From contig CAYXDZ010000002.1 in assembly GCA_964463815.1 (NCBI GenBank), forward strand, positions 1 to 36,972: a stretch of DNA of 36,972 nt, read 5' to 3'. Within the stretch, counting starts at the first letter, position 1. Every line of letters begins with the position of its first letter. The stretch comes from an uncultured Verrucomicrobiota bacterium. Lineage in GTDB: Bacteria; Verrucomicrobiota; Verrucomicrobiia; Limisphaerales; RI-55. Position numbers and translations under genes: made by a program. Below the pieces are notes generated by a model. The model saw nothing but the letters and a program-made list of their open reading frames with translations, searched no databases and had not been told where the DNA came from. Shown in pieces: positions 1,505-29,536 of the stretch.

Positions 1505-2902
1505 TCAAGTGGCGCGGCAGATGAACTCCTCGAACTTGCCGCCCGGCCCGCGCGGAATCGGCTGGGTGAGCCATTCGTACCGGACGTTGAACGGATGTCC
1601 CAAGCCGTTCTGGATGATCGTGGTCAGGCGGGACTCCTGTTCCGCCGTGGGCCGGCCGGGGGCGACGAACCGGGCGATGATGGTCTGGCGGTCCGGCTGG
1701 ATGAACTGAAACTGCCGGACGGGAAACACCGCCCCCCAACTGGCAAAACCGCACACCGGCCAGTGCCGGGAACCATCGGGCAGCAGCACGAGATTCCGTT
1801 GCCGACCGACGAAGCGCTTGATCGGAGTGAGGCCGCGCCCGCATGCGCAGGGTTCCGCGACTTCGGCGTAATCGCCAATTTCGTAGCGGATAAGCGGCGT
1901 GGCGTAGTTGACCAGTTGCGTGAGCAGAATCCGGCCGGTCTGACCCGGCGCACAGGGTTGGCCGGCGTCATCCACGACTTCCATGATGATCTGTTCCGAA
2001 ACGTGATAGTTGCCCTGTTCGGGACATTGCATGGCGATGACGCCGCCTTCCATCGAGCTGTAAACATCCTGCACCTCCACGCCGAGCAGCCGCCAGACTT
2101 CTTCGCGCAAATAGGGCGTCACCGTCTCGCTGAGTGTGCGGACGCCGCGCATGTCCGGCAACCGCCGGCCGGTGCGTTCGAGTTCGGCGACGATCTCGAT
2201 CAAAGTGCTGGGCAGCGAGAGCAGGTAATGCGGCGAAAACTCCGTCAGCCAGCGCACCAGATCCTCGATCGAATATTTGAACGGCCGGGTGGCGGAGCGA
2301 CCAGTGCGGAAGAGCAGACTGCACGGTGAACCCCAATCAGGTGCATCCGACTCCTTGAAAACATTGGCCCGCACAATGGCGAGCCGGCCCGAAAAGTCGC
2401 GCCGATGCCAGAGATGTTCGCGCAAGGTCAGCGCCAGCCAGTTAAGCGAAAAGTGCTGCGTTCGCCGCACGGTGACGGGTTCCCCCGTGGAGCCGGTAGT
2501 GCTGGCCGAATCCACCTGGCCATGCTCGCGAGGCACGGAACGGCAGAAGAGTGATTCACGCGCTGAGACCAGTTGGCGGCGGGTCAGGGGCGGCAGTGCT
2601 TGCAGACCGCCGGGCGCGGCCAGTTCGTCGGGCGTGAGACCGGCCGCTTTGAGTCGTTTCTCAAAATGCGGGGACTGCTTCGCGGCGTGACGGGCCAGGG
2701 CGCGCAGCCATTCGCGCTGCCGGGCGGCCAGATCGGGGGCGGGCAGACGCTCGTTTACCGCGCACTCTTCCAACATGGCCAGGAGCCGTTCGCCGCCGTT
2801 GCGCGTCCGCACTTCCGGCGGCAGCAGCAACGGATGACCGCGCACCTGCTCAAGCCAGCCCGCACTCAGGGCTGGGGGGTGAGGCAAAACACCGGACAAC
2901 AT
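1505..2902 (-). CDS. Adenylate-forming enzyme of the phenylacetate-CoA ligase / coenzyme F390 synthetase (PaaK-like) family
   Basis: 465 aa ORF with the AMP-binding P-loop-like motif STTGSTGEPVTVRRT and a C-terminal PaaK-type region (YEIGDYAE...CACGR, GPGGKFEEF). The stop lies 4 nt before the mlaE start. The start is uncertain: the ATG at 2902 overlaps the upstream gene by 37 nt, and an internal Met (MLEE...) is possible. Confidence 0.75.
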   Translation of the reverse strand: MLSGVLPHPPALSAGWLEQVRGHPLLLPPEVRTRNGGERLLAMLEECAVNERLPAPDLAARQREWLRALARHAAKQSPHFEKRLKAAGLTPDELAAPGGLQALPPLTRRQLVSARESLFCRSVPREHGQVDSASTTGSTGEPVTVRRTQHFSLNWLALTLREHLWHRRDFSGRLAIVRANVFKESDAPDWGSPCSLLFRTGRSATRPFKYSIEDLVRWLTEFSPHYLLSLPSTLIEIVAELERTGRRLPDMRGVRTLSETVTPYLREEVWRLLGVEVQDVYSSMEGGVIAMQCPEQGNYHVSEQIIMEVVDDAGQPCAPGQTGRILLTQLVNYATPLIRYEIGDYAEVAEPCACGRGLTPIKRFVGRQRNLVLLPDGSRHWPVCGFASWGAVFPVRQFQFIQPDRQTIIARFVAPGRPTAEQESRLTTIIQNGLGHPFNVRYEWLTQPIPRGPGGKFEEFICRAT

Positions 2903-9033: not shown

Positions 9034-9116
9034 ACGGCCGATTCTCTTTGTCAACGGGCCGCCCTGGGCTTGCTCCCCGGCGGCCCGTTTGTTTAGCTCC
9101 CACCTCATTTGTTATT

Positions 9117-13086: not shown

Positions 13087-13120
13087 AGCCTGCGGGTGTT
13101 TGCCCGCAGGCTTCTTTTTA
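13087..13120 (+). terminator. Rho-independent terminator after the transketolase-family gene
   Basis: Perfect 10-bp stem AGCCTGCGGG (13087-13096) / CCCGCAGGCT (13103-13112), a 6-nt loop, then TCTTTTTA. It lies 25 nt after the stop codon. Confidence 0.7.
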
Positions 13121-13315: not shown

Positions 13316-16300
13316 ATGAAAACATCGTTGTTCTGCGGCGGCTCCGCCAGCCTTCCGCGTGGTTGCCGAATCGGGATGGTGACCGCCACTCTCCTTTGCT
13401 CCCAATTGCTGTTTGCCCAGCCGGTTTATTGGGATCCGGCCCAGGGAGGAAACGGCCACTACTACGAGGTGGTGGTCGTGCCGGGAGGGATCAACTTCTG
13501 GGAAGCGCGGCTGCAGGCGTCCGCGCGGGGCGGCCGGCTGGCAAGCATCAACTCGGCTGCGGAGAATGAGTTCGTTCACGCCCTCGCAGCGGCGAACACC
13601 AACGCCTGGTGGACAGATGGCACGACCACCCACGGTCCCTGGCTGGGTGGATTTCAGGCTGATGGTTCGCCCGAGCCGACCGGCGGTTGGGGGTGGATCG
13701 GAGGCGAGCCGTTCAGTTACACGAACTGGGCCAATGGCCAGCCCGACAACTGGGCCAACAGCGAAAACGCGCTTCATTTCTGGGCGCTGGGCGCCAACAA
13801 TTTCGCGGCAACCTGGAACGACATCAACGGCACCGCCGGTTCACCGCGCAGCTACGTGCTGGAGGTGGACATCACCGCGGCCACCGGATGGATCGCCCGC
13901 AATGCAGCCACCGACTTCTCGGCGACGCTCAATCCCAGCGCGCCCTGGACTCACGGCTACGCACTCAATCCGGGCGCTTCGTTCACCGCCTTTGGACACG
14001 CCACGACGGCGGCTGGCCTGCAGGTCTGGCAGCGGCCGGGAACGAGCGACCCGCCCTCGACGGTCTTCAACCCGACGGGAAGCACGAGCACGCCCGGCAC
14101 GCCGGTGTATGCGGCGGGCGAGCTGCACCTTCACCCCGGGCCGACGGGTGAGTTCGCCGTGCTGCGGTTCACCGCGCCGGTGACCGGCATCTACGAGATT
14201 AACGCCGCATTCCAAGGAGCCGACACGGTGGGAACCTCCACCGACGTCTGGGTGCTGTCCGGGACCAATGAATGGTTCCGGGGCACTGTCAACGGGTACG
14301 GACCGGCCAGCCGGAGGGCGTACCGGACGGCGGTGCCGCTGAATGCCGGAGCGAACATTGATTTCGCGGTCGGGCCCAATGGGACCTATTTCTACGACAA
14401 CACTTTGGTGGAAGTGCAAATCAGCTACCGGGCGACGACCGACGCGGTCAGCGGAACGATCGCCTATGCCGGCGAGGAGGATCGCTACAGCTTCCAACTG
14501 GCGCAGCCGGCAACGATGTATTTCGACTCGCGCACTTCGAGTTCGGGCCTCAACTGGACGCTGACCGGGCCGCCGGGGACGGTGGTCAACGTGCGCGGGT
14601 TCGGCAGCAGCGATGCGGACACGAGCAGTGACCCGTTGCTGCGTCTGCCGGCGGGCGATTACACGCTGGTCATCCGCGGGAGCGGGGCGACCACCGGGGC
14701 CTATGAGTTCGTGCTGCTCAATCTGGCCGATGCGACACTGATCACACCGGCGACGGTCATCGCAAATCACGAGTTCCCGCGGCGAACGACCGATCTCTAC
14801 CAGTTCACCGCCAATTCCGGTGACGTGATGTCCTTCGACCGGTTGACGCTGGTCAATGGCGGCAGCCCCTACTGGCGGCTTGTCGATCCCTACGGAAAAA
14901 TCGTCTGGGCCACCTATTTCAACGACGTCAACAACGTCACCCTACCCGCCACCGGCACCTACACGCTGCTGGTCGAAGGGACGATCAGCGGTGGCTCGGC
15001 GACCAGCTACTCGTTCCAGCTCCTGCCGCAGGGCGGCACGCCCTCGCCGGCCTTCACCGGCATGCCGCTGGCTCTGGGCACCGGAGTGACCAACGTGATC
15101 GACACCGTCGGTGCGACCAACGCCTACACCTTCACGCTCGCGCAGCCGACCCGGCTCTATTACGACAGCCTGACCAACAACGGCAGTTTGCGCTACACGC
15201 TGTTCGGTCCCGGCGGCACCGTGGCCACGACGCGTGGCGTCAGCGGCGGCGCAAACAGTGACCTGCATTATGCGCCGGCGGGCGACTACCAGCTCGTGAT
15301 CTCGGCGGTGAGCAGCTACACCGGCTCGTTCGCGTTTCGCCTGCTTGATCTCGCGACGGCCACCCCGATCACGCCGGGCACCGTGGTCAATGGCACCACC
15401 ACGCCGGCCAGCGGGCTGCGGATGTACCGGTTCAGCGCCACGCCCGGCACGCGGCTGTTCTTCGATGCGCTGTCGCAGTCCGGCTACACCTATTTCGGCA
15501 ACGCCTACTGGTCGCTGGTCGATCCCTACGGGAACGTGTTGTTTGCCGACAACGGCTTTGGTGACCGTGCGACGACCACATTAACGGGGAACGGTGATTA
15601 CACCCTCTGGGTCGCGGGCGGCGATCACGAGCCGGGCGCCCAGGGAAACTTCTCCTTCAACCTGGTGCCCGCGACGGAGACCTCGACCGCCCTGGTATTG
15701 AACACCGCCTACAGCGGCAGCGTGGCCACGCCGGGCCAGCAGCACCTCCACACGTTCAGCCTTGCGGAATCGAAGCGCGTCTATTTCCAATCGCTCACCA
15801 ACCAGCCGAGCATCCGTTGGACGATGACTGGTCCGGGCGGCGTGGTGCAGTCGGCCATCGCCTTCAACACCGGCGGCTGGCTCGCCTACACGCTGGCGCC
15901 CGGCGACTACACGATCACTGTCTTCGCGAACGGTGATCTCACGGGCGGTTACGCCTTCAAGCTGGTGGACTACGCCACCGCCACGTCGATCACCGTGGGA
16001 CCAACGATCAACGGCACGGTCACCCCGGCGGCCTCGATCAACATCCATGAGCTGACGCTCACCGCGGGTGACCGGTTGTTTGTCGATGCGTTGTCCCAAA
16101 GCGGGTTCACCTACTACGGCACCGCCTTCTGGCGGCTCGAAGATCCCGAGGGTAACACCGTGTTTCTCCCGGACATCAACCTCCATTGGGATCGTGGTTT
16201 CAGCGACATCGGACCGTTCACGGTGCCGCGCACGGCCGCCTACCAGCTGTTGATCGGCGGTGGAGTTCAGGAAACGCAGGCCGGCGGCAACTACAGCTTC

Positions 16301-19300: not shown

Positions 19301-22300
19301 AAGCTCCTCGACCTCAACACCACCTCCGACGCGCCCACGTTTGTACTGCCCTTCACGGGCACCTACACGTTCGCGATCGAAGGGCGCGTTTACAACTCCG
19401 GCCCCGGCCTCACCGCGAACTTCGCCCTGGTCAGCAATCCGCCCAAGCCGGTGGAACCGCTGTTTGAAAACACGTCGTTGCCGGACCTTGTCGTTGACAC
19501 TGTCAGCGTCACGCCGCCCGCCGGATTGAAGTCGGGCGATCCCTTCACGGTGAACTGGACGGTCCGCAATGCCGGCGCGCTCGCCACGGGCGGTTCCTTC
19601 ACCGACCGCGTCTCGGTGCGGAACACGGCCCTCAACCAGATCATTCTCAACACCACCCTCGCCTACAACCCGGCCGACGCGGGCAATGGTCCGATCGCTC
19701 CCGGCACCCAGCGCAACCGGCAACTGGCCCTCACCCTGCCCGCCGGTGCCAGCGGTGCCGGCTCGCTGGAGGTGACGGTGACGACCGACACGCTGAATCA
19801 GCTCGCGGAGTACAACATCGGCGGCACCGGCGAGTCGAACAACAGCAACTCGACCACCTTCAACAGCACGCTCGCGCCGTATCCGGATCTGCGGGTCATC
19901 GCCCTCGCCGCCAATCCTCCCTCGGGCTGGTCGCCGGGTAACGTCGTCGCCATCAACTGGGCCGTCACGAACAGCGGACCCGCCAACACCAGCACCTCAT
20001 GGGTGGACCGCGTCATCGTCCGCAATGACTCGCGCTCGGTTGTGCTGCTCACCACCAACGTCGTGCACGATCACGCCACCCTCGGCGGACTTGCGTCCGG
20101 CGGCCGGCGTGATCGACAGGCTTCATTTGTTGTGCCCGCCGGGTTGAATGCGCAGGGCCTGTTCTCGATCAGTGTCGAGACGGACGCGCTCGGCACGGTG
20201 GTCGAGAGCCAGCCCACGGATTCGGGCGAGGCCAACAATCTCACGACCATCAACGTTCTTTCCGCCCCCGACCTCACGGTTTCCGGCGTTCAGGTAGTGG
20301 CCACGCCGTCCGCCCAATCGGGTGCTTCGCTCGCGCTGCAATGGTCGTTGGAAAACACCGGCACGGCCCCGGCCGTCGATGCGTTCTCCGACCGGATCAT
20401 CGTCCGCAACCTCGACACCGCCGAGACGTTGATCAACACCTTCGCCGCCTACAATCCCGCCTCGCCGGGCAACGGTAGCATCGCTCCCGGCACCTCGAAG
20501 GCGCGCTCGTTGAACGTGAACCTGCCCGACGGTCCCCGGGCAGCCGGCAATCTCCAGATCGAGATCGCGGCCGACACCTACAATCAGATCGTGGAATTCA
20601 CCGCCGCCGGCACTTCCGGTGAGAACAACAACTCCGGTTTCGCCAACCTCACCACGACGCTTGCGCCGTATCCCGATCTCGTTGTGACCAACCTCGCCGT
20701 GTTGCCCGGCAATCCGCAGTCTGGTTCCGAGGTGACCGTGCGTTGGGAGGACTTCAACATCGGCATCGCGCCGGCCACCGCGAGCTGGCACGACCGGCTC
20801 GTTGTCGTGAACACGGGCTCGGGCGCCACGCTGCTCGACACCACGATCCATCATCCGACCACAACGCTCGGTGCGTTGACGAACGGTCTCACCCGGCTGC
20901 GCCAGTATGTCTGGCGCCTGCCCAACGGCGCGGCCGGCACCGGCAACCTCAGGTTCACGGTGACCGCCGACCACTTCAACGCGGTCTTCGAGCACAACCC
21001 CGGCGCCACCGCCGAGGCGAACAACGATCTCGCCGTCATCGTGCCCGCGACGCTCGCCGCCTATCCCGATCTGGAGATCGCCTCGTTCGACGTAGCGCCC
21101 GCGACCTACGAGTCCGGCCGGCTGTTGACCGCCGCATGGGCGGTGACCAACACGGGCACCGCGTCGGTTGCCGGAGATTTCTACGACCGCCTGCTGGTGC
21201 GCAACCTGTCTCTGGGCTCCACCCTGTTCGACCAGTCGTATTACCTGAACCCGGTGGCGGACACGAACGGCCCGATCGCTCCCGGCCAGTCCCGCCTGCG
21301 TACGGCAACCTTCCGGCTGCCCGACGGACCGGCCGGCACCGGCAGCATCGACGTGGCACTCTTTCTTGATTCGGGCAACCGGGTGTTCGAGTTCCGCGAA
21401 ACCGTGGATGCCGAGGCGAACAACACCACCAACCTGACCCGCAGTTCGACCGTCGCGCTTTACCCGGATCTCGCCATCAGCAACGTCACCGCGCCGCCCA
21501 CCGGTCTGCCTGGTCAGACGCTGCAGGTGAGCTGGACGGTGACCAACGGCGGCAGTGCCGGCACGCCGGCCGCCTGGACCGATCAGGTGTACCTGGTCGA
21601 CGACACCAATCCCAACGCGCCGCAGTTGATCGGCACGTTCAACTTCGCCGGCACGCTCGGTGTCGGTCAGTCGAGCAACGTCACCCAGACCGTGACGCTG
21701 CCGTACTTCACCGTCGGCACCCGGCGCCTTGCCGTTCGTGCGAACTCGGGCCCGGCGTTCTACGAGCCCAGCCTGGCGAACAACTTTGCGACGGCGGCCG
21801 CCACGATCTCGCTTTCGCCGCGTCTCGAGTTCACGTTGAACCGGACGAGCATTCCGGAGAACGGCGGCAGCGTCGTGGCCACCGTGTTGCGCAATGCGAA
21901 CACCACCAGCGATCTGACGGTCAGTCTCGCCAACTCCGACACCAACAGCCTGCTGGTGCCGACTCAGGCGGTGATCCCGGCCGGGCAGACATTCGCGAAT
22001 GTCACGCTCACAGTGCTGAACAACAGCCGGGTGGACGGCAATCGCACGGTCAACGTCACCGCCTCGGGCGCCGGCTACGCCGACGCCGCGGCCAGCCTCC
22101 TCGTGCAGGACGACGACCTGCCGACGCTCACGCTCCAGATGTCGCCGGGTCAGTTGATGGAGGACGCGGGACCGGGCGCGGCGATGGGTTACCTCACCCG
22201 CAACACGCCAACCAACGTGGCGTTGACGGTGAACCTGGTGAGCGACGCGCCGACGCGCTTGCTGCCACCGGCCTCGGTTACCATTCCCGTGGGGCAGTGG

Positions 22301-25300
22301 TCGTTTGCGTTCGATATCGCCGCTCCGGTGAACACCACCATCGAGGGCGCGCGCGACGTCCGCGTGCAGGCGACAGCACAGGGCTTCACCACCGGCAGCG
22401 CGATTGTGAACGTCCTCGACAACGACGCCCCCACGCTCGACCTCACGGTGGCGGCCGCCGCGATTGTCGAGGGCGCGGAGAGTCCGGCGACCTCCGGTCT
22501 GCTCACGCGGCAACCGCCATTGAACAGTCCATTGAGCGTCGTACTGGGCCAGAGCCTGCCCGGCCTGCTGTTGCTCCCGCCGGAACTGAACTTCGCCGCC
22601 GGCCAGTCCCAGCTTCCGTTCAACATCAGTGTCAGCGATGACCTGCTGGTCAACGGCACCCGCACGAACGAACTGATCGCCCGCATTCGCGGCGTCACCG
22701 GCGTGCCGATCACGAACGGCCAGGCGACCGCAACCCTGGTGGTGTTCGACAACGACGGCCCGTCGCTCACGCTCACGCTCGCCAGCGACGTCGTCAGTGA
22801 AACCGGTTCGGTCAACGGCACGGTCAGCCGCAACACCGGCACTGGTGGCGCGCTCACGGTCAACCTCGCGAGCAGCGACCCCGGCGAGGCGGTGCCCGCG
22901 TCGCCGACCGTCGTGATCCCGAACGGCGCGACCTCGGCGGCATTCACCGTGAACGGCGTGGTGGACGGACAGAACGACGGCATCCAGCCCGTGATCCTCA
23001 CGGCGACGGCGGCCGGGTTCAACAGCGCCACCGCGCGGTTGAACGTCTCGGACGTGGACCTGCCGGACCTTGCCGTGGGCGACATCATCGTACCGTCGTC
23101 CGGCCAGATCGACGCGAGGGCGAACGTCACGTTCACCGTCTCGAACTCCGGTCCGGTGCCCGCCTCCGGCACGTGGGTTGACCGCATCTTCATCTCTTCG
23201 GACAACCAGCTCGGCGGCGACATATTGGCCGGCGCGCACACGAACACGGCACCGCTGGCCAGTGGTTCGGCCTACGTCCGCACCGTGTCCATCACGTTGC
23301 CGGCGGATCCGGGGCTCTATCACATCATCGTGGTGACGGACGCCGACAACCAGGTCGTCGAGGGCAGCGAACGGAACAACGTCATTTCCATCGCCCAGAT
23401 CGACGTGCAACCGAACTACCGCGCCACGGTGGAAACGGCGATCGTCACCGCGCCGTGCGGCACATTGGTGCCGATCACCGGCCGGGCGTATTACCCGGAG
23501 GACAACTCGCCGGCCATCCTGAAGCCGGTGCTGGTCCGCATCCTCAACGGCGGCACGCGCCGGACCTACTCGGTCTTCTCGGACATCGACGGCACGTTCC
23601 GGCTGAACTTCACGCCGATCCCGACCGAGACGGGCGACTACCAACTCGCGGCCGATCATCCGCGGGTTTACCAGGACACGCCGCAGGACAGCTTCACGCT
23701 GCTGGGCTTCGGGCTCTCGGCGGAATACGCGTCGATGACGATCGTGCCCGAGACGCCGATCAGCGGGCAGATCACGCTGCGCAATGCGACCGGCACGACG
23801 CTCACCGGCCTGTTGTCCGCCGCAACCAACGCGCCGGCCGCGCTTGGACTCACGCTCAACGTGCCGGCGACGTTGCCCGGTCACGGCGAGGTCACGCTCG
23901 ACTGGTCGATGAACACGACGATCACAAACGCGGCCCGCGTGGTGTTCCCGGTGGTGATCTCGTCGGCCGAGGGCTGTCAGCGACAGGTGTTGTTCACCGT
24001 CCAGATCGCGCCATTGCGCCCGCAACTCGTGGCCGAGCCGGCCTTCCTCAATCGCGGCATGGTGCGCGGCGAGCAGTCGCTTGTGCCCTTCACCCTGCGC
24101 AACATCGGGGGCGTACCGACCGGTCCGTTGGACGTGCTGTTGCCGCCGTCGGAATGGCTGAAGCTCGCGGGCACGAACCGTTTGAACTCCCTCGAACCGG
24201 GTGCCAGCACGGTGGTGAATCTGTTGCTCGAACCAGCTTCGGATCTGCCGCTCATCATCCATGGCGGCAACCTCGCGATCAACGGCGCCAACACGTCGCT
24301 TGCGGTGCCGTTCCAGTTCCGCGCGATGTCCACTGCCCAGGGTGATCTCAAGATCACGGTCACCGACGACTACACCTATTACGTCGAGGGCAATCCGAAG
24401 GTCACCAACGCCGTGGTCACGCTCACCGACCCCTTCACCGGTCAGGTGGTGACCAACATGACCACCGACACCGCCGGCGAAGCGCGGTTCGTCGGACTCG
24501 TTGAAGGTCCGTACACGGTGGATGTCAGCGCGCCGAAGCGGAACACCTTCCGGGGCACGGCCACCATCCAGCCCGGCGCGGAGACGGTGCTCGAAGCCTT
24601 CCTCATCCGCCAGACCGTCACCTACCGGTGGTCGGTGGTGCCGGTCGAGATCGAGGACCGTTACAAGATCGTGCTCGAGTCGGTGTTCGAGACCGAAGTG
24701 CCGGTGCCGAACGTGATCATTGAGGAGCCGCACATCATGCCGCTGGTCTTCGAGGGCGAGACGAACCAGTTCGAGTTGAAGATCCGGAACGTCGGCCTGA
24801 TCGCCGCCGAGAACGTGACGATCAACGTGCCGTACGACGCGACCTACGTGATCCAGCCGCTGGTCACGAACATCGGGACGCTGCCCGCGATGAGCTCCCT
24901 GTCGATCCCGGTGTTGATCCATGAGCGGAGCACGACCGCGTCTCTGCTGCGGCTGGCCTCGCTGAATCCGCGATTGAACGGCGGCGACTGCGGCATCGAC
25001 ACCCTGCCGTGTCTGCCGAAGATCCCGTTGGGGGTACACTATTACTACACGTGCGGTCCGAACGGCGTTTACCAGCAACGTTCGGCCGACCTCTCGCCGA
25101 TCTGCGTGGCGAAGGATATCAAGGAATGTGTGGAAAAAACCCTGCAGTCGGCCGCCTCGTTGAATGCCTTCCGCAACGGCGGCAACGCGGCAAACTTCGC
25201 GTGTGACCTGGCCAAGGCGATCCTCCAATGCGGCGGCGTGAACCTGACGCCCTGCCAGAACGCCGCGTTCTCGATTGCCTGCGGGGCCGCCACGGGCGGC

Positions 25301-28300
25301 CTCGGTGGAGCGGCCAGCAACGGGCTCGGGCCGACGCTCAGTTGCATCTGCGATCTTGCGAAAGACTTCAGTGTCGGCATTCCTTCCTCACCGCCGAACT
25401 ACGGCACGGTCAACTACGTCAACGGCAGCCTCTTTGGCTCGCATCCGAGCGGCTTCAACGGCTACCCCTATTCGGTCGGCTGGTACATCGGCCCCGGCAA
25501 TTGCGCGTCGCCGGCGCCCAACAGTTTCACCGGCGGCTCCACGCCCCTGCCGCGCCTGATGAACGACGGCGTCTGCGCCCGGGTGCGGTTGCAGATCGAC
25601 CAGGAGGCGGTCATGACACGCGTCGCGTTCAAGGGCTCGCTCGAGATCGAGAACTCCGGCACTGACGCCATCACCGGCATCCGCGTGGACCTCGACGTCC
25701 GCGACGCGAACGACCATCCGGCGGGCGACCGTTTCGTGGTCCGGCCGCCGGTCGTCACCGACATGGGCGCGGTGGACGGCTCGGGTGTGGTCGGTGCGCT
25801 GGGCACCGGTTCGGCCGAATACCTGTTCATCCCCACCCGTGACGCGGCTCCGACCGCACCCCGCGTCTATCGCATTGGCGGCTCGTTTCGCTACCTCGAG
25901 AACGGCCAGGAGGTCGTGGTCCCGCTGCTCTCCTCGACCATCACCGTCTATCCCGAGGCGCGGCTGCAGTTGCACTACTTCCAGGCACGCGAGGTTTATT
26001 CGGATGATCCCTTCACCGAGGAAGTCGAACCCGCCGAGCCGTTTGCGTTGGGCATCATCGCCCGTAACGTCGGCGCCGGCGCGGCGCGGAACTTCCGTAT
26101 CACCTCGGCCCAGCCGAAGATCATCGAGAACAGCAAGGGCCTGCTGATCGACTTCAAGATCATCGGCAGCCAGGTCGGCACGAACGCCGCCGAGCCGAGC
26201 CTCACGGTGAATCTCGGCAACATCCCCGCCGGCCAGTCGCAGGTCGCCCAATGGCTGCTGACCTCGACGCTCCAGGGCAAGTTCATCGAGTACAAGGCGA
26301 CGTTCGAGCACGTGGACAACTTTGGTTCGACCAACCTGTCGCTCATCGACTCGGTCGAAATCCATGAGTTGATCAAGGCCGTGCTGGCGGATCGACCCGG
26401 CGACGATTTTGCGCCGGATTTCCTCGCGAACGATATCCCGGATCCCGACAGCCTGCCCGACATCCTGCATCTGAGCGACGGCTCGACCGCGCTGGTGCAT
26501 GCGCTGACCAACGGCGTCTTCTCCAACCAGATTGGCTCCGGTGCGCGCCAGGCGACGCTTACCTTCGCCCCGCAGGCCGGCTGGCAATACCTCCGCCTGC
26601 CGAACCCGGGCGCGGGCTGGCAATTGTTCCGCGTGGTCCGCTCCGACAACAAGGTCCTGAAGGTCGGCACCAACGTGTGGACCACCGACCGCACCTTCCC
26701 GACCGCGACCTACGGCACCATCCGCGAGCATCGCTTCCACCTGCTCGACCACGATTCGACCGGCAGCTACACGGTCTTTTACCGGCCGGTGGACACCGCG
26801 CCGCCGGTGCTCGTCTCGGTTGGGCCGGTCACGCCATCCTTCCAGACCGCGGCGGTGACTTCGGTCGAAGTGCTGTTCAACGAAGAAATGGATCTCGCGA
26901 CCTTCACGCCTGCGGATGTCACGCTCTCGCTCAATGGTGGCGGGAACCTGATCAACGGCGGCGTCACGATCACCCAGCTCGCCACGAACCGCTTCGCCAT
27001 CGGCAACCTCGCGGCGCTCACCGGAGCGGACGGCAATTATGAACTGTCCGTGAACGCCGCCGGCATCGAAGACTTCGGCGGCAACGTCGGCTCGGGCATG
27101 GTGGCTACGAGCTGGGCCAAGGGCTCGGTCGCTCCGGTCCTCACCGCGCTGGGACCGGTGTTGCCCAATCCGCGCAACCTGCCGGTGGATTCGCTGGAAC
27201 TTGCCTTCTCCCGCGCGATGAATCCGGCCACCATCAGCCGTGACGACCTGGTGCTCACCCGCAACGGTGGCGCCAGCCTGATCACGTCCGCCGTGCAGGT
27301 GCTGCAGACCGACACGAATCGTTTCGTCATCAGCGGTCTCGACACACTCACGCAACTGGCCGGAAACTACGTTCTTACCGTGAACGCGGCCGGCACGACG
27401 GACGCCGAAGGTATCGCCGGCACCGGCAGCCGTTCGACCACCTGGAGCATGGTCACGACCGGACCCCGCATTGCGTCGCTTGAACAGCCGGCGACCAATC
27501 CCCGGAACATCGTGGTCGCCAGCCTCGACGTCACTTTCGAGGCGCCGATCAATCCGGGCAGTTTCACCTGGCAGGATATCGCCCTGACGCGCAATGGCGG
27601 CCCGAACCTGCTCACCAGCGCGGTCACCGTCCAGCAGGTGTCGCCCACCGTGTACCGCATCGCCAATTTCAACTGGGTGATCGGCCAGGAGGGCGAATAC
27701 CGCTTCACGGTCACTGCCACCGGGATTCTGGATGCCGCCGGCAATGGCGGCACCGGTTCGGCCTCCGTATCGTGGAAGATGGACACCACCCGGCCGGGCG
27801 CCGCCTCGGCACTGGCGTTGACTCCCGATCTCGGCGAGTCCACAACCGATCGCCTGATTAACACGCTCGCGCCCACGCTCACCGGTTCTTTGCCCGAGAC
27901 CAACCTCACCGTCCGCGTAAAGAATCTGACGACGGGTCTCGATCTCGGTCCGGCCACGGTAACCGGTCAGAGCTTCAGCAAACTCCTTTCGCTGGCGACG
28001 GCGGGCGCTCATCAGCTCGAAGTGCGCACGGTTGATGCCGCGGGCAACACCTCGTTCCCCGACGTGCAGCTCGACCTGTTTGTGGACCTCACGCAACCGT
28101 CGGCCACCATGGTGCCGGTCGTGCCCAACGTCCGCAACACCGCGGTGCCTTCGGTCACCGTCACCTTCTCCGAGGCGATTCACGCGGCGAGCTTCACCCG
28201 CGACGACCTCACGTTGACCCGCCAGGGCGGCGCCAACCTGATCAACGCCGGTGTCAACGTTGCCAACGTCGTTTCCAACCAATGGCAGATCAGCGGCCTG

Positions 28301-29536
28301 ACGGCGCTCACCGATCTCCCCGGTGCCTACGTGCTTTCGTTGAACTTGGCCGGCATCACTGATCGCGCCGGCAACGCCGGCACCAACTCCGTCTCGGCCG
28401 GCTGGTCCCGCACCGGCGCCAACCAGCCGCCCACGCTCGCATTCATCGCCGATCGCAATGCCAAGGTTGGCGAACTGATCACTTTCACCAACGTCGCCAG
28501 CGATCCCGACGTCGGACAGCGGCTGACCTTCAGCCTGAACGTCGATGCGCCGGCGAACGCGCGGCTCGTCGCCACCAACGGCGCATTCTCGTGGACGCCC
28601 ACGCGCAGCCAGTCGCCGGGCCTGTACCCGATCATCGTCACCGTCACCGACGACGGCGTGCCGCCGGCCAGCGCCGCGCGGACGTTCGTCGTGGCGGTCG
28701 AGGACTACACCGAAACCCGGCTGGGAGAGACCGTGCTGCTCGCCGGTGAAAACGGGGCGTTGAACCTCACCCTCATCTCGACCGCCGGCCTGACGAACCT
28801 CGTCACGGAAGTCGCCGTACCGACCAACCGGATTGGCGCGCCGCAGCTCGGCGGGTTGAGCGCGCTGGTGGGCGCCTCGAGCATCCAGGAATTGGGCGAC
28901 GGCCGGTTCCGCGTGAGCGTGACCAGTCAGCCGGGACAATCGATCCGCGGTTCGAACGTGCTGGGCCAGCTCCAATTCACCACCGAACCCACGCAGAACT
29001 CCGCCTTCATCAAGGTGCCGCTGAGCAACGTCGCCGCCCGCCAGCCCGACGGCTCCGTGGTGGGCACGACATTTGTGCGCGACGGCCGGGTGGTGATGAT
29101 TGGCGGGCAACCCTTGCTGGAAACCGTGCGCACGACGGATAACTCCCGCTTCCTCCGCCTGTTCGCCCGCCCCGGCGACGCGCATGACCTGCAATTCGCG
29201 CCTGCTGTCACCGGTCCGTGGAGCGACGTGGAACGTCTGCGCTTCAGCGGCCGTGAGTTGTCGTTCGCCCCGCTGAACACGACCGGTAGCACATTCTACC
29301 GCCTCGCCTCCGTAGATACCTCGCTGCCGTTCTTCGAGATCCTGTCGGCCGACAGCGCGGGCATGGACGTCGTGTTCTACGCAGATCGCGGCCTGACCTA
29401 CGACCTGCAAACCTCCAGCAACCTGAACCTCCCCTGGACCACGCAGCTCACACAACCGATGAACAACCAGTTCCACGAACTGCGCCTCACCGTGCCCGCA
29501 AACGAGAACCGCTTTCTCCGCGCCCGGTCGCAATAA
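13316..29536 (+). CDS. Giant secreted multidomain surface/adhesin-like protein (about 5,406 aa)
   Basis: Single uninterrupted ORF; the track gives 13289-29536 from a GTG. I prefer the ATG at 13316, which gives MKTSLFCGGSASLPRGCRIGMVTATLLCSQLLFAQP, a signal-peptide-like N-terminus. Domain content is listed in the sub-features below. Confidence 0.9.
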   Translation: MKTSLFCGGSASLPRGCRIGMVTATLLCSQLLFAQPVYWDPAQGGNGHYYEVVVVPGGINFWEARLQASARGGRLASINSAAENEFVHALAAANTNAWWTDGTTTHGPWLGGFQADGSPEPTGGWGWIGGEPFSYTNWANGQPDNWANSENALHFWALGANNFAATWNDINGTAGSPRSYVLEVDITAATGWIARNAATDFSATLNPSAPWTHGYALNPGASFTAFGHATTAAGLQVWQRPGTSDPPSTVFNPTGSTSTPGTPVYAAGELHLHPGPTGEFAVLRFTAPVTGIYEINAAFQGADTVGTSTDVWVLSGTNEWFRGTVNGYGPASRRAYRTAVPLNAGANIDFAVGPNGTYFYDNTLVEVQISYRATTDAVSGTIAYAGEEDRYSFQLAQPATMYFDSRTSSSGLNWTLTGPPGTVVNVRGFGSSDADTSSDPLLRLPAGDYTLVIRGSGATTGAYEFVLLNLADATLITPATVIANHEFPRRTTDLYQFTANSGDVMSFDRLTLVNGGSPYWRLVDPYGKIVWATYFNDVNNVTLPATGTYTLLVEGTISGGSATSYSFQLLPQGGTPSPAFTGMPLALGTGVTNVIDTVGATNAYTFTLAQPTRLYYDSLTNNGSLRYTLFGPGGTVATTRGVSGGANSDLHYAPAGDYQLVISAVSSYTGSFAFRLLDLATATPITPGTVVNGTTTPASGLRMYRFSATPGTRLFFDALSQSGYTYFGNAYWSLVDPYGNVLFADNGFGDRATTTLTGNGDYTLWVAGGDHEPGAQGNFSFNLVPATETSTALVLNTAYSGSVATPGQQHLHTFSLAESKRVYFQSLTNQPSIRWTMTGPGGVVQSAIAFNTGGWLAYTLAPGDYTITVFANGDLTGGYAFKLVDYATATSITVGPTINGTVTPAASINIHELTLTAGDRLFVDALSQSGFTYYGTAFWRLEDPEGNTVFLPDINLHWDRGFSDIGPFTVPRTAAYQLLIGGGVQETQAGGNYSFRILPVVDTTQPLTFGQVIEPAITSPGQQLVYTFTLNGPTRVQLDNQRSTPNLRWTLADAGRTYAANIGFNSDSWYVYDLPAGNYRLIVNTGNDATGTARLQLLDFAAATPITLDTVHNVTLVPPTEDRQFRFSAAAGQRVYFDLLSQSGFTYYGYPFWRLEGPGGNVLLEAGVADAGPIVLPENGSYTLIVHGNHNEAQPQGNLSFRINNAPLTTSPLVLDSLTTGELAIAGETDRFVFTLAQPAQVVFDSRTNSPLRVSLSGPGGLVANNWAFNSLDGPNRDSYLNLPAGDYTLDVTGSTDATGGYAFLLRTLASAEALALNTTINGTLDPANATRLYRFTASAGDRIRFQALSQSGMPNAYWRLRDPQGDLVWGSYFNGSAHSNLLARTGAYTLQLEGYHAEASASGSFSFSSTTFAPTPPPGPSGTAITLGETVNGTLPTSGTVHSFALTLTQPGRLYLDWLRAMDGFSWALVGPGGVVVPSTSVYATLNPPLHTRALLPGTYELQLTGTVNPYSFRVLDVNAAPLYTLDTVHTNELVPAAGASFLRVNLTAGQRLFFDLLSETGLNSSATKRLEDAAGNLLFTLGHAANAGPVDVRVTGEHLLNFDGQWANPGATGAVAFNLRTVLQPTSPLAFGTVHSNTLAGGGDVHQFTFTLAGTNRVFFDALNNPPGGWKWTLEGPGGPLVQNRGVVSSDGVDIGEPSLLLRPGDYRLSVSSDSDQLIPFVFQLLRDVDATPFAIGSTVTTNHAPGTATSLWRFSATAGQQVYFDAVPGGYTPNLRIYSPGGSQFASFGTGSDVDTFALPATGEYLVALEGRIYEAAASGTVSFAFLPISYPTNTLALDTVVAGAISTPGTRHHWTFSLATPRQLWFDTLTNAPGATWTLTRGQNVLVSARGFLGSDGIDIGNALLSLPAGDYVLTVSLGLGSTGTYAFQLVSPESTTLMQMNVNTAVLLDPPVVTRLLAFNETAGERFYFDGRPQSGAGSANARLYDPFGAKLLDLNTTSDAPTFVLPFTGTYTFAIEGRVYNSGPGLTANFALVSNPPKPVEPLFENTSLPDLVVDTVSVTPPAGLKSGDPFTVNWTVRNAGALATGGSFTDRVSVRNTALNQIILNTTLAYNPADAGNGPIAPGTQRNRQLALTLPAGASGAGSLEVTVTTDTLNQLAEYNIGGTGESNNSNSTTFNSTLAPYPDLRVIALAANPPSGWSPGNVVAINWAVTNSGPANTSTSWVDRVIVRNDSRSVVLLTTNVVHDHATLGGLASGGRRDRQASFVVPAGLNAQGLFSISVETDALGTVVESQPTDSGEANNLTTINVLSAPDLTVSGVQVVATPSAQSGASLALQWSLENTGTAPAVDAFSDRIIVRNLDTAETLINTFAAYNPASPGNGSIAPGTSKARSLNVNLPDGPRAAGNLQIEIAADTYNQIVEFTAAGTSGENNNSGFANLTTTLAPYPDLVVTNLAVLPGNPQSGSEVTVRWEDFNIGIAPATASWHDRLVVVNTGSGATLLDTTIHHPTTTLGALTNGLTRLRQYVWRLPNGAAGTGNLRFTVTADHFNAVFEHNPGATAEANNDLAVIVPATLAAYPDLEIASFDVAPATYESGRLLTAAWAVTNTGTASVAGDFYDRLLVRNLSLGSTLFDQSYYLNPVADTNGPIAPGQSRLRTATFRLPDGPAGTGSIDVALFLDSGNRVFEFRETVDAEANNTTNLTRSSTVALYPDLAISNVTAPPTGLPGQTLQVSWTVTNGGSAGTPAAWTDQVYLVDDTNPNAPQLIGTFNFAGTLGVGQSSNVTQTVTLPYFTVGTRRLAVRANSGPAFYEPSLANNFATAAATISLSPRLEFTLNRTSIPENGGSVVATVLRNANTTSDLTVSLANSDTNSLLVPTQAVIPAGQTFANVTLTVLNNSRVDGNRTVNVTASGAGYADAAASLLVQDDDLPTLTLQMSPGQLMEDAGPGAAMGYLTRNTPTNVALTVNLVSDAPTRLLPPASVTIPVGQWSFAFDIAAPVNTTIEGARDVRVQATAQGFTTGSAIVNVLDNDAPTLDLTVAAAAIVEGAESPATSGLLTRQPPLNSPLSVVLGQSLPGLLLLPPELNFAAGQSQLPFNISVSDDLLVNGTRTNELIARIRGVTGVPITNGQATATLVVFDNDGPSLTLTLASDVVSETGSVNGTVSRNTGTGGALTVNLASSDPGEAVPASPTVVIPNGATSAAFTVNGVVDGQNDGIQPVILTATAAGFNSATARLNVSDVDLPDLAVGDIIVPSSGQIDARANVTFTVSNSGPVPASGTWVDRIFISSDNQLGGDILAGAHTNTAPLASGSAYVRTVSITLPADPGLYHIIVVTDADNQVVEGSERNNVISIAQIDVQPNYRATVETAIVTAPCGTLVPITGRAYYPEDNSPAILKPVLVRILNGGTRRTYSVFSDIDGTFRLNFTPIPTETGDYQLAADHPRVYQDTPQDSFTLLGFGLSAEYASMTIVPETPISGQITLRNATGTTLTGLLSAATNAPAALGLTLNVPATLPGHGEVTLDWSMNTTITNAARVVFPVVISSAEGCQRQVLFTVQIAPLRPQLVAEPAFLNRGMVRGEQSLVPFTLRNIGGVPTGPLDVLLPPSEWLKLAGTNRLNSLEPGASTVVNLLLEPASDLPLIIHGGNLAINGANTSLAVPFQFRAMSTAQGDLKITVTDDYTYYVEGNPKVTNAVVTLTDPFTGQVVTNMTTDTAGEARFVGLVEGPYTVDVSAPKRNTFRGTATIQPGAETVLEAFLIRQTVTYRWSVVPVEIEDRYKIVLESVFETEVPVPNVIIEEPHIMPLVFEGETNQFELKIRNVGLIAAENVTINVPYDATYVIQPLVTNIGTLPAMSSLSIPVLIHERSTTASLLRLASLNPRLNGGDCGIDTLPCLPKIPLGVHYYYTCGPNGVYQQRSADLSPICVAKDIKECVEKTLQSAASLNAFRNGGNAANFACDLAKAILQCGGVNLTPCQNAAFSIACGAATGGLGGAASNGLGPTLSCICDLAKDFSVGIPSSPPNYGTVNYVNGSLFGSHPSGFNGYPYSVGWYIGPGNCASPAPNSFTGGSTPLPRLMNDGVCARVRLQIDQEAVMTRVAFKGSLEIENSGTDAITGIRVDLDVRDANDHPAGDRFVVRPPVVTDMGAVDGSGVVGALGTGSAEYLFIPTRDAAPTAPRVYRIGGSFRYLENGQEVVVPLLSSTITVYPEARLQLHYFQAREVYSDDPFTEEVEPAEPFALGIIARNVGAGAARNFRITSAQPKIIENSKGLLIDFKIIGSQVGTNAAEPSLTVNLGNIPAGQSQVAQWLLTSTLQGKFIEYKATFEHVDNFGSTNLSLIDSVEIHELIKAVLADRPGDDFAPDFLANDIPDPDSLPDILHLSDGSTALVHALTNGVFSNQIGSGARQATLTFAPQAGWQYLRLPNPGAGWQLFRVVRSDNKVLKVGTNVWTTDRTFPTATYGTIREHRFHLLDHDSTGSYTVFYRPVDTAPPVLVSVGPVTPSFQTAAVTSVEVLFNEEMDLATFTPADVTLSLNGGGNLINGGVTITQLATNRFAIGNLAALTGADGNYELSVNAAGIEDFGGNVGSGMVATSWAKGSVAPVLTALGPVLPNPRNLPVDSLELAFSRAMNPATISRDDLVLTRNGGASLITSAVQVLQTDTNRFVISGLDTLTQLAGNYVLTVNAAGTTDAEGIAGTGSRSTTWSMVTTGPRIASLEQPATNPRNIVVASLDVTFEAPINPGSFTWQDIALTRNGGPNLLTSAVTVQQVSPTVYRIANFNWVIGQEGEYRFTVTATGILDAAGNGGTGSASVSWKMDTTRPGAASALALTPDLGESTTDRLINTLAPTLTGSLPETNLTVRVKNLTTGLDLGPATVTGQSFSKLLSLATAGAHQLEVRTVDAAGNTSFPDVQLDLFVDLTQPSATMVPVVPNVRNTAVPSVTVTFSEAIHAASFTRDDLTLTRQGGANLINAGVNVANVVSNQWQISGLTALTDLPGAYVLSLNLAGITDRAGNAGTNSVSAGWSRTGANQPPTLAFIADRNAKVGELITFTNVASDPDVGQRLTFSLNVDAPANARLVATNGAFSWTPTRSQSPGLYPIIVTVTDDGVPPASAARTFVVAVEDYTETRLGETVLLAGENGALNLTLISTAGLTNLVTEVAVPTNRIGAPQLGGLSALVGASSIQELGDGRFRVSVTSQPGQSIRGSNVLGQLQFTTEPTQNSAFIKVPLSNVAARQPDGSVVGTTFVRDGRVVMIGGQPLLETVRTTDNSRFLRLFARPGDAHDLQFAPAVTGPWSDVERLRFSGRELSFAPLNTTGSTFYRLASVDTSLPFFEILSADSAGMDVVFYADRGLTYDLQTSSNLNLPWTTQLTQPMNNQFHELRLTVPANENRFLRARSQ
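13450..13870 (+). other. C-type lectin-like domain (within the giant protein)
   Basis: HYYEVV...INFWEARLQASARGGRLASINSAAENEFV...WLGG...W.WI.GEPFSYTNWANGQPDN...ENALHFW...WNDINGT. This is the classical CTLD motif order (WxxA...LASI.S..E..F, W.G, F.NW..GEPN, WND). Confidence 0.8.
14436..19440 (+). repeat. Array of 16 PPC-like (pre-peptidase C-terminal type) beta-sandwich domains arranged as 8 tandem A/B di-domain units of about 620-650 nt
   Basis: Unit starts lie near 14436, 15085, 15710, 16346, 16966, 17603, 18221 and 18845. Type A consensus is G..D.Y.FTLAQP..vyFDS.TN...L.WTL.GPGG.V......... L.LPAGDYTL.V.g..d.TG.YAF.LLDLA.A. Type B consensus is TPIT..T..NGT..PA....YRF.A.AG.R.fFD.LSQSG..Y....WRL.DP.GN.....LP..G.YTL...G...E....G..SF. 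The repeats have diverged at the DNA level. Confidence 0.7.
19478..21800 (+). repeat. Six tandem CARDB-like domains (about 130 aa each)
   Basis: Starts lie near 19478, 19876, 20261, 20663, 21055 and 21455. Each begins (A)PYPDL.V, then carries W.V.N.G, then [WF].DR..V.N, and ends E.NN (GESNNSN, GEANNLT, GENNNSG, AEANNDL, AEANNTT, SLANNFA). Confidence 0.7.
21806..23057 (+). repeat. Four tandem Calx-beta-like domains
   Basis: Roughly 100-aa units, each ending in an acidic boundary: LLVQDDDLPTL, VNVLDNDAPTL, LVVFDNDGPSL, NVSDVDLPDL. Internal patterns are I.E.GG....V.R and IPAG.T.A.F.V. The canonical DY-containing Ca-site motif is not evident, hence 'like'. Confidence 0.5.
23060..23400 (+). other. 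Seventh CARDB-like domain
   Basis: LPDLAVGDIIVPSSG...VTFTVSNSGPVPASGTWVDRIFISSDN...VVTDADNQVVEGSERNNV. Confidence 0.65.
24341..24600 (+). other. Carboxypeptidase-regulatory-like (CarboxypepD_reg-type) beta-sandwich
   Basis: GDLKITVTDD...NAVVTLTDPFTGQVVTNMTTDTAGEARFVGLVEGPYTVDVSAPKRNTFRGTATIQPG fits the V.D..G.P...A.V.l......tTD.~G.F.f..L..G.Y.v.v.a.Gy pattern. Confidence 0.55.
24977..25590 (+). other. Cys-rich island of the giant protein
   Basis: About 13 Cys in roughly 200 aa (GDCGIDTLPCLPK...YTCGPNG...SPICVAKDIKECVEK...NFACDLAKAILQCGGVNLTPCQNAAFSIACGAA...LSCICDLAK...GNCASP...GVCARV). The remaining 5,200 aa or so are almost Cys-free. Confidence 0.8.
26798..28410 (+). repeat. Four SbsA-type Ig-like domains plus one Big-like domain (27780-28087)
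   Basis: Units start near 26798, 27125, 27450 and 28088. They share V.S..V.F.E.m.p.[ST]F...D[LI].LTRNGG.NLI...V.V.......f.I.gL..LT...G.Y.L.vnA.GI.D..GN.G. Confidence 0.6.
28421..28706 (+). other. Cadherin-like / putative Ig (dystroglycan-type) domain
   Basis: NQPPTLAFIADRNAKVGELITFTNVASDPDVGQRLTFSLNVDAPANARLVATNGAFSWTPTRSQSPGLYPIIVTVTDDGVPPASAARTFVVAV. The typical Q.L.FSL...P.GA.i....G.F.WTP......G.Y...V.VtD.G.P pattern is present. Confidence 0.7.
28707..29100 (+). other. Cohesin-like beta-sandwich (tentative)
   Basis: GETVLLAGENGALNLTLISTAGLTNLVTEVAVPTNRI...GRFRVSVTS...GSNVLGQLQFTTEPTQNSAFIKVPLSNV. The pattern resembles cohesin-type modules. This is a weak motif-level call only. Confidence 0.3.
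29101..29533 (+). repeat. Duplicated C-terminal module of about 70 aa (also found once at the C-terminus of the 1,029 aa protein)
   Basis: Copy 1: LRLFARPGDAHDLQFAPAVTGPWSDV...GSTFYRLASV. Copy 2: VVFYADRGLTYDLQTSSNLNLPWTTQ...NENRFLRARSQ. Compare LELRGFPGRRYRLEQSTDFSDWSPV...GDRQFLRAIKLVE at 33735-33944 on the minus strand. Confidence 0.6.

Follow-up and report, generated by a model that had tools for sequence, protein, structure and literature searches.

Giant surface adhesins of Bacteroidota such as SprB are cargo of the type IX secretion system (T9SS) and carry a type A C-terminal sorting domain. The giant repeats-in-toxin (RTX) adhesins associated with type I secretion systems (T1SS), among them LapA, SiiE and MpIBP, are Ca-stabilized chains of Ig-like domains of several thousand residues with binding modules at one end. 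To our knowledge, a T9SS has not been established in Verrucomicrobiota. Here, we describe a giant gene of an uncultured Verrucomicrobiota bacterium (Limisphaerales; RI-55), located on contig CAYXDZ010000002.1 of assembly GCA_964463815.1, of which positions 1 to 36,972 constitute the window that was analyzed. The gene encodes a mosaic protein of 5,406 amino acids (aa) whose C-terminus is formed by a cohesin-fold domain plus a small tail domain in two copies. Our reading, to which we assign a probability of roughly 0.55, is that the protein is a Sec-exported, adhesin-like surface fiber that is sorted or anchored by this C-terminal cassette via machinery encoded elsewhere.

Giant repetitive surface proteins are known in bacteria of the Planctomycetota-Verrucomicrobiota-Chlamydiota (PVC) group (PMC11573180; bioRxiv 10.1101/2023.11.21.568195). 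For the sulfatase Amuc0953 of Akkermansia muciniphila, a 2026 study reported that the C-terminal domain modeled with AlphaFold3 resembles a T9SS C-terminal domain (CTD) and that the culture medium showed none of the enzyme's activity; its authors raise the possibility of a comparable secretion system in that species (PMC13524802). This remark was all that we found in the literature on Verrucomicrobial C-terminal sorting signals. As a Verrucomicrobial secreted protein with a T9SS-CTD-like last domain, Amuc0953 can be likened to the tail of the giant protein by description only, and its sulfatase passenger is unrelated to the giant protein; a search of the PDB sequences with the tail profile, aimed at Amuc0953, found nothing.

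The giant protein shares the design of T9SS type A cargo such as SprB, namely a Sec signal, a long beta-sandwich chain and a small (~70-80 aa) C-terminal beta domain, and homologs from Draconibacterium and Candidatus Symbiothrix hold a T9SS domain where the giant protein holds its tail. However, the tail is not matched by TIGR04183 or PF18962, follows a cohesin and in many cases occurs in duplicate. With the RTX/T1SS adhesins the giant protein has in common the long, Ca-stabilized Ig-like chain with binding modules at one end and LapA-like repeats (aa 2836-3250, sub-threshold matches), but it lacks the nonapeptides and T1SS genes, bears an N-terminal Sec signal instead of a C-terminal T1SS signal, and has its candidate anchor at the C-terminus rather than at the N-terminus. 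The dockerin-bearing giants of Planctomycetota (PMC11573180) and the cellulosomal scaffoldins are comparable in that Planctomycetal members of the family described below end in Dockerin_1 and the giant protein has a true cohesin fold. It differs from them in carrying a cohesin instead of a dockerin, and SLH, a sortase anchor and nearby catalytic subunits are absent. As a lectin-tipped, adhesin-like fiber, the giant protein is of a familiar kind, and what makes it valuable is its family and its tail, not the size of the open reading frame (ORF).

The C-terminal cassette

The C-terminal cassette comprises aa 5130-5406. In the AlphaFold2 (AF2) model of these last 277 aa, which has a predicted local distance difference test score (pLDDT) of 94.5 and a predicted template modeling score (pTM) of 0.86, a cohesin domain of ~135 aa is followed by two small domains, each with six to seven strands. 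Foldseek aligned the first domain to type I cohesins with target TM-scores of 0.82-0.84 and a root-mean-square deviation (rmsd) of ~2 Å, which bears out in structure the cohesin-like module proposed in a preliminary description of this sequence; Pfam Cohesin had no sequence match in the giant protein.

No RTX GGxGxD nonapeptide was counted in the giant protein, and a C-terminal LPXTG motif was not found, the three LPxTG occurrences at aa 543, 1802 and 2011 being internal and due to chance. A PEP-CTERM signal is likewise missing, the sole PEP lying at aa 119, and a C-terminal hydrophobic segment is also absent; beyond the N-terminal signal region, the protein contains no hydrophobic segment resembling a membrane helix. 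Neither the giant protein nor its scanned neighbors matched a two-partner secretion (TPS) domain or TpsB, and the last 277 aa, which model as the cohesin and two small sandwiches, contain no autotransporter barrel. Motif counts, hydropathy and the model thus agree with the preliminary description, which had reported no RTX repeats, LPXTG, PEP-CTERM, terminal transmembrane helix or autotransporter-like terminus. Its statement that the protein has no anchoring signature stands for the known signatures, but a conserved and strictly C-terminal domain is present.

This tail domain has a consensus of ~70 aa, YG.pG..Y.Lq.s.nL...W....tN......(R)F(Y/F/L)R, after which 2-6 residues precede the stop codon. 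In an alignment from 20 loci, the W is invariant and the R near-invariant. Copy 1 of the giant protein lies 75-76 aa upstream of copy 2. A first hidden Markov model (HMM) of the tail placed the domain 0-6 aa from the C-terminus in ~30 giant ORFs, many of them with a second copy ~75 aa upstream. The HMM was iterated to 171 instances and scored on the ORFs of the window and of the loci described below, where 37 matches lay <=10 aa from the C-terminus, 17 were adjacent tandem copies and 1 was found elsewhere. The tail is present in 64 of 147 family representatives, and in 59 of these 64 it lies <=10 aa from the end. It had no Pfam, NCBIfam or PDB sequence match, and the T9SS family Por_Secre_tail (TIGR04183/PF18962) was not found in the last 257 aa of the giant protein (Pfam E<=1, NCBIfam E<=0.1).

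Six unrelated ORFs, too, terminate in the tail; their passengers differ and comprise Ig domains with a cohesin, two SBBP beta-propellers, an EEP-family enzyme, a CBM96 and, in this window, a DUF1565/beta-helix protein. The latter has the Sec-type N-terminus MHTSRKGFPLVVAVLALFAGLGGAA and the C-terminus ...DRQFLRAIKLVE, and the tail HMM matches it with an independent E-value of 7e-9, ending 5 aa from the C-terminus. It represents a second tail-bearing secreted protein, encoded 4 kb from the giant gene. At locus L010 (3-2090), an unrelated ORF of 696 aa has a Pfam Cohesin match of 29.3 bits followed by the tail domain. The cohesin-then-tail order that this ORF and the giant protein have in common suggests that the two domains may form a reusable C-terminal cassette.

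The domain found at the C-terminus of family members differs between phyla. The Verrucomicrobiota members, the giant protein included, end in the ~70-aa F(Y/F/L)R tail, which is often doubled. The Bacteroidota members (L047 and L052) have T9SS type A C-termini, scoring 51.2 and 38.5 bits with TIGR04183 (cut-off 23) and 58.5 and 35.8 bits with PF18962. A C-terminal dockerin was detected with PF00404 in a Planctomycetota member (L049; 31.8 bits, above the cut-off) and in Anabaenopsis (L041; 37.6 bits). In two further Planctomycetota members the dockerin is either below the Pfam cut-off (L055; 15.8 bits, with a sub-threshold match to a GC-type dockerin) or recognized by sequence pattern only (L034).

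Since the tail is strictly C-terminal and independent of its passenger, occurs together with signal peptides and in one phylum, and is swapped for a T9SS CTD or a dockerin elsewhere, we propose that it has a role in sorting or anchoring. A serious alternative, although in our estimate an unlikely one, is that the giant protein is released, without covalent or specific anchoring, as a matrix or biofilm protein through a general export route, e.g. type II secretion, and that tail and cohesin are modules that bind LPS, a polysaccharide or a partner protein and do not act as a secretion signal. Cohesins serve as protein-protein interaction modules, the dockerins of the Planctomycetal relatives are binding modules and not translocation signals, a dedicated export gene was not found nearby, and giant genes of Omnitrophota are tied to loci resembling type II secretion systems (bioRxiv 10.1101/2023.11.21.568195). 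However, a pure binding module would have no obvious reason to be placed 0-10 aa from the end in ~97% of the terminal copies and on unrelated passengers, and the Bacteroidota relatives hold a true translocation-and-anchoring signal at the same position.

The tail might also be a C-terminal folding nucleus or cap that acts in an autochaperone-like manner, independently of the family and without a sorting role, by stabilizing passengers rich in beta structure. This would be in line with a small and very confidently predicted beta domain that packs on its neighbors (pTM 0.86) and often occurs in tandem. We consider it improbable, however, given that the passengers differ widely in fold (propeller, EEP enzyme, beta-helix, CBM96 and Ig chains) and that sorting or docking modules substitute for the tail in other phyla while the remainder of the protein is homologous.

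The conserved core and its family

The family, a very large and so far unannotated group of giant extracellular proteins, is defined by a core that spans aa 3360-4490 of the giant protein and in which a beta-sandwich chain is followed by the variable Cys-rich insert and by three highly conserved beta domains. A database search with this region returned 23 proteins from metagenome-assembled genomes (MAGs) of Verrucomicrobiota and Planctomycetota, annotated as 'hypothetical', 'CARDB domain-containing' or 'Ig-like domain-containing'; a good number of them are fragments or truncated by frameshifts. When GTDB species genomes were scanned with the most conserved stretch of the core (alignment A4), 55 loci with the core were found, mostly in Verrucomicrobiota, with several in Planctomycetota, two in Bacteroidota (Draconibacterium and Candidatus Symbiothrix) and a member in the cyanobacterium Anabaenopsis elenkinii CCIBt3563, which is in culture. 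The order of the core segments a, b, g and h, judged in complete loci, is constant across the 55 loci. The ORFs enclosing the core measure 3,000-5,700 aa where the contig allows, and the shorter ones lie on short or fragmented contigs. The Cys-rich insert between segments b and g varies in sequence and length among the relatives (~200 to >400 aa) and is the sole poorly conserved and poorly modeled part of the core. Five MAG records (L008, L040, L043, L038 and L021), some of them with the tail, are labeled Bifidobacterium, Bifidobacteriaceae, Accumulibacter or Acetobacteraceae; these labels are probably binning or labeling errors.

The closest relative, from the Verrucomicrobiales MAG UBA12295 (L002), shows 86% identity, and two Limisphaerales MAGs contain orthologs that are ~70% identical. 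In one of these orthologs (L001; ~5,386 aa), the closest one on a long contig (597 kb), a frame change at ~9050-10004 separates parts of 4,951 + 435 aa; it may stem from a true frameshift or from an error of the long-read assembly. An ortholog-bearing Limisphaerales MAG holds a second family member of ~4,750-4,900 aa with the same tail (L013; contig JBGARF010000001.1; L001 20747-21308, minus strand), which is convergent and located ~9 kb downstream of the ortholog, past chemotaxis and two-component genes. Therefore, genomes can hold several paralogs.

An exhaustive HMMER search with segments g and h (401 aa) yielded 2,726 cluster representatives at E<=1e-3 and 1,903 at E<=1e-30, with lengths of up to 7,859 aa. 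The homolog of the hemichordate Saccoglossus kowalevskii (XP_006822956.1; P0035) has 7,485 aa and three complete cores at aa 2677-7123, the segment g of which is 36-45% identical to that of the bacterial core. Behind the cores lie a Ser/Thr-rich (mucin-like) stalk, a single transmembrane helix and a short tail in the cytoplasm. The homolog is a type I membrane protein with the cores outside, and the core is therefore extracellular in an animal. Its N-terminus, as read from the sequence, is pentraxin- and discoidin-like and then beta-helix-like. The Saccoglossus cores point to either horizontal transfer or an ancient shared extracellular module.

The alignment of segments g and h (18 sequences) contains dozens of invariant residues, many of them D, N, P or G, as in DDPxTxxxEPxxP, SxQPxIxxNxKGL and DxxxDFxxND, and a Cys that is near-invariant lies where segment g begins. 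These segments have no Pfam match, no NCBIfam model and no PDB sequence relative at E<=10, and whole-protein scans with Pfam and NCBIfam gave no match for aa 190-375, 4100-4500 and 5150-5406 even at E<=1. The preliminary description had called the core of ~1,100 aa impossible to assign. This still holds for matches in Pfam, NCBIfam and the PDB, but the core is not an orphan, as it is colinear in 55 loci and its segments g and h recur in 2,726 clusters.

The AF2 model of the core (1,131 aa) is a beta-sandwich chain with a mean pLDDT of 78.7, most beta domains exceeding 85. Two confidently predicted strands of 29 residues, an unusual length for sandwich domains, flank the insert at aa ~3768-3796 (24620-24720) and aa 4085-4113 (25568-25660). 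Segment-wise structure prediction and Foldseek, which confirmed the cohesin fold, yielded for the core generic Ig arrays (hydin, other ciliary central-apparatus proteins, gp210, alpha-2-macroglobulin, C5 and TEP1) with TM-scores of ~0.1, and the assignment of a specific fold was rejected. The core is a conserved, probably Ca-stabilized extracellular module.

It is very unlikely, in our view, that the core instead represents a protease trap of the alpha-2-macroglobulin (A2M)/TEP type, or another catalytic or covalent-capture machine, with the Cys-rich insert as bait. Foldseek aligns the core model to alpha-2-macroglobulin, C5, TEP1 and CD109 over ~1,000 columns with E ~1e-12, the variable insert lies amid a conserved array of beta domains, and many polar residues are invariant, including DDPxT, together with the near-invariant Cys at the start of segment g. 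However, the TM-scores are ~0.1 and unrelated Ig arrays (hydin, gp210) obtain better E-values, and therefore the match is generic. Moreover, a thioester (CGEQ-type) motif and a helical domain of the size of a thioester domain (TED) are both absent, Pfam A2M and MG domains are unmatched even at E<=1, and neither an HExxH nor a GDSL motif was found in the giant protein. Asp-Pro self-cleavage or a thioester role of the conserved DDPFT and GVCA, for which the motifs as such are the only support, was also rejected.

The giant ORF is intact and real. As stated in the preliminary description, its frame is open over 5,415 codons, from the GTG at 13289 to 29536 on the plus strand, without an internal stop and at 65% GC; 5,406 codons remain from the ATG at 13316. 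The encoded protein is acidic (D+E 435 vs. K+R 279) and contains 0.7% Lys, with T, A, G and N being abundant. Misassembly is unlikely because the internal repeats of the protein are merely 25-50% identical, the DNA repeats within the ORF are all short (<=95 nt, 60-96% identity) and independent genomes contain colinear ORFs of the same size. The longest DNA repeat stretch, of 95 nt, has 69-74% identity, and long near-identical DNA repeats were not found. An origin of the 16-kb ORF from collapsed repeats, as an assembly artifact or a decaying pseudogene, might be considered because the protein is highly repetitive and many database homologs are fragments or frameshifted calls. Given the low identity of the repeats, the uninterrupted frame and the independent genomes, whose colinear ORFs are similar in length and identical in domain order, this explanation is already largely refuted and scarcely credible, and an assembly artifact was rejected.

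The N-terminus and the domain chain

A basic n-region, a hydrophobic core of 13 residues and a cleavage-like LFA site can be read in the N-terminus, MKTSLFCGGSASLPRGCRIGMVTATLLCSQLLFA followed by QP, consistent with the Sec signal peptide of the preliminary description. The hydropathy peak at aa 16-37 is the second highest of the giant protein, and full-length relatives likewise begin with signal-peptide-like N-termini. A lipoprotein signal was rejected because the LLC context is not a lipobox.

The C-type lectin domain that had also been proposed is confirmed by its Pfam score (Table 1), by PDB sequence matches to carbohydrate-recognition domains (CRDs) of the mannose receptor and of collectins (E 3.9e-6 to 1e-3) and by the Ca/sugar motif, with QPD at aa 142-144 and WND at aa 167-169. 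Sequence likeness in Pfam and the PDB and the QPD...WND motif are thus shared with animal C-type lectins (CRD4 of the mannose receptor, collectins). In contrast to these, all canonical disulfide cysteines are gone, and the domain occurs once, at the N-terminus of a giant protein from a bacterium. The following domain of ~185 aa resembles the N-terminus of one other family representative only (P0144, 31% identity over 167 aa).

The 16 PPC-like modules are arranged in eight alternating A/B pairs of ~210 aa each. Types A and B cross-recognize weakly with internal HMMs, and therefore all 16 modules are homologous. Pfam PPC exceeded its threshold for one pair (26.3 vs. a cut-off of 25.9 bits). In the PDB, the profile of the pairs matched the collagenase domain 5sv5 with E 2.9e-4 and, far more weakly, the ColH domain 3jqw (E 0.52). 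By these comparisons, the predicted PPC identity of the 16 modules is weak but real. The six tandem CARDB copies score 113-168 bits each with the internal HMM, and the arrangement of a CARDB directly before the core was also observed in homologs.

The four repeats at aa 2836-3250, which had been described as Calx-beta-like, do exist, but the label fails. Calx-beta (PF03160) did not match the four own repeats or five homologous repeats even at E<=1, a PDB profile search with the repeats found no Calx-beta chain, and this identity was rejected. Sub-threshold LapA-domain matches were obtained for three of the nine repeats, and the best PDB match was the C-terminal domain of protein-asparaginase 9xg1 (E 2.2e-4). 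The repeats thus appear closest to LapA-type repeats.

The remaining modules of the preliminary description were recovered as well. Scans of the translation with HMM libraries confirmed the lectin, PPC, all seven CARDB-like copies together with the internal HMM, Big_5, Big_13 and He_PIG. The carboxypeptidase-regulatory-like and Ig-like modules correspond to CarboxypepD_reg and to four Big_5 and one Big_13, and the cadherin-like module is He_PIG.

Neighboring genes

The upstream transketolase-family gene, with matches to Pfam Transketolase_N, Transket_pyr and Transketolase_C, is followed by an intrinsic terminator, and therefore the giant gene is a separate transcription unit. Downstream of the giant gene, aminotransferase genes of class III (bioA-like) and class I/II (bioF-like) are in convergent orientation. 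The scanned ORFs of the window further include the housekeeping functions MlaE permease, methyltransferase, hemC, hemA, cytochrome c assembly protein, FAA hydrolase, proS and SDR. The housekeeping neighborhood noted earlier, with a terminated transketolase-family gene and a convergent bioA gene, is thereby confirmed, and so is the absence of T1SS, TpsB and T9SS families among the scanned ORFs of the 37-kb window. None of the scanned ORFs matched families of the PorK/L/M/N/Sov type, and genes for an ABC transporter, a membrane fusion protein (MFP) or TolC were not present among the scanned ORFs.

The S8 subtilase is encoded 5 kb upstream of the giant gene on the opposite strand. It is without the tail domain, and no evidence links it to the giant protein. 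The 465-aa ORF located between the MlaE permease gene and the methyltransferase gene had no Pfam match even at E<=0.1. The DUF1565/beta-helix protein is unrelated to the giant protein.

Table 1. Positions of the giant gene, its domains and neighboring features in the window.
Feature	Position	Strand	Evidence or description
Giant ORF	13316..29536	+	ATG start, 5,406 aa; frame open from GTG 13289
Predicted signal peptide, aa 1-34	13316..13417	+	Sequence reading
C-type lectin domain, aa 36-185	13421..13870	+	Pfam Lectin_C 26.7 bits (cut-off 22.6)
Domain of ~185 aa without assignment, aa 190-375	13883..14440	+	No Pfam match at E<=1
16 PPC/collagenase-domain-like beta-sandwich modules (~105 aa), aa 376-2044	14441..19447	+	Internal HMMs, Pfam, PDB
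Six tandem CARDB, aa 2056-2832	19481..21811	+	Pfam CARDB E 2.9e-30
Four repeats of ~105 aa, aa 2836-3250	21821..23065	+	Each ends in D-x-D/N-D motif
Seventh CARDB, aa 3250-3357	23063..23386	+	Internal CARDB HMM 37.7 bits; directly upstream of core
Core N-terminal part (segments a, b)	23393..24970	+	Beta-sandwich chain, two CarboxypepD_reg-like domains, terminal 29-residue strand
Cys-rich insert, aa 3886-4084	24971..25567	+	13 of the protein's 18 Cys; partly helical/disordered, pLDDT 24-66
Core C-terminal part (segments g, h)	25568..26785	+	Most conserved segment; pLDDT mostly >90
Ig-like stalk: three Big_5, Big_13, fourth Big_5, within aa 4497-5128	26804..28411	+	Pfam
He_PIG (dystroglycan/cadherin-like Ig)	28430..28699	+	Pfam He_PIG E 2.8e-10
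Cohesin-fold domain	28703..29107	+	AF2 model pLDDT 94.5; Foldseek to type I cohesins
Tail domain copy 1, ends ...STFYRL	29111..29305	+	Iterated tail HMM 54.0 bits; six beta strands in model
Tail domain copy 2, ends ...NRFLRARSQ-stop	29327..29533	+	Tail HMM 71.0 and 60.9 bits, 0-3 aa from C-terminus
MlaE permease gene	646..1500	-	
465-aa ORF	1505..2902	-	
S8 subtilase gene, 488 aa	6656..8122	-	Fervidolysin-type N-terminal prodomain
Transketolase-family gene	10996..13062		Pfam
Intrinsic terminator of transketolase-family gene	13087..13112	+	11-bp stem (8 G-C pairs), then T-run
DUF1565/beta-helix gene, 1,044 aa	33732..36866	-	Pfam; signal peptide and C-terminal tail domain

Proposed function and significance

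The preliminary description had inferred a carbohydrate-binding, Ca-dependent giant of the cell surface or matrix with an export and retention mechanism that could not be named. The signal peptide, the all-beta chain, the QPD...WND motif, the T9SS and dockerin ends of relatives and the animal homolog are in agreement with an extracellular, carbohydrate-binding and probably Ca-dependent protein. The second part can be revised in that export and retention can be narrowed to the C-terminal cassette.

According to our proposal, the giant protein would be exported by Sec into the periplasm, and its cohesin and tail cassette would mediate passage of the outer membrane, attachment to the surface, or both, by means of machinery encoded elsewhere in the genome. 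A long, Ca-stiffened fiber would then extend from the cell, and its distal N-terminus would offer glycans or polymers a galactose-type lectin and PPC-like modules. The fiber would be all-beta, with ~48 beta-sandwich modules and an estimated length of ~150-200 nm if fully extended, and the PPC/collagenase-type modules may serve as its ligand-binding and spacer part. The cohesin and the doubled tail could be the Verrucomicrobial counterpart of the T9SS CTD or the dockerin that is found at the same position elsewhere. We further suggest, tentatively and as a possibility rather than an expectation, that the tail, with or without the cohesin, is the recognition signal of an undescribed Verrucomicrobial pathway for outer-membrane translocation and surface attachment that would be functionally analogous to the T9SS but unrelated in sequence, and that the core family is an ancient extracellular module, found even in an animal, plugged into the surface-sorting system of each phylum.

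Several observations weigh against a surface fiber that is sorted or anchored by its tail. No recurrent neighbor gene pointing to a translocon was found across the 55 loci, and a dedicated exporter encoded adjacent to the giant gene was therefore rejected. Comparison of the tail profile with a true T9SS CTD by hhalign gave a probability of 0.7%, i.e. no profile similarity, and a database-wide word-indexed search with the tail profile returned one match, a fragment of 100 aa. The breadth of the tail outside the family rests on six ORFs in ~0.85 Mb of sequence, and its strict C-terminal placement could also reflect a role as a folding cap or in ligand binding. The signal peptide of the giant protein was called by reading the sequence. 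Cysteines are absent between aa 29 and aa 3380, which leaves the lectin without its canonical disulfide cysteines, and the galactose-type binding predicted from its QPD/WND site is not proven. Finally, all evidence on the family consists of sequences and structure models.

The core-defined family of giant proteins, which extends to an animal, and the Verrucomicrobial C-terminal domain in the slot of the T9SS CTD or dockerin both seem to lack a description in the libraries and literature that were searched. The annotation gap is sizeable for environmental genomes, comprising a module of ~1,100 aa, a 401-aa part of which occurs in >2,700 clusters and a deuterostome, without a Pfam or NCBIfam model or a solved relative. 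The delivery of the many large surface proteins and glycan-degrading enzymes of Verrucomicrobiota across the outer membrane is poorly understood, and a strictly C-terminal, passenger-independent tail provides a concrete handle on it, in the form of an HMM, counts per genome and phylogenetic profiling for the cognate machinery.

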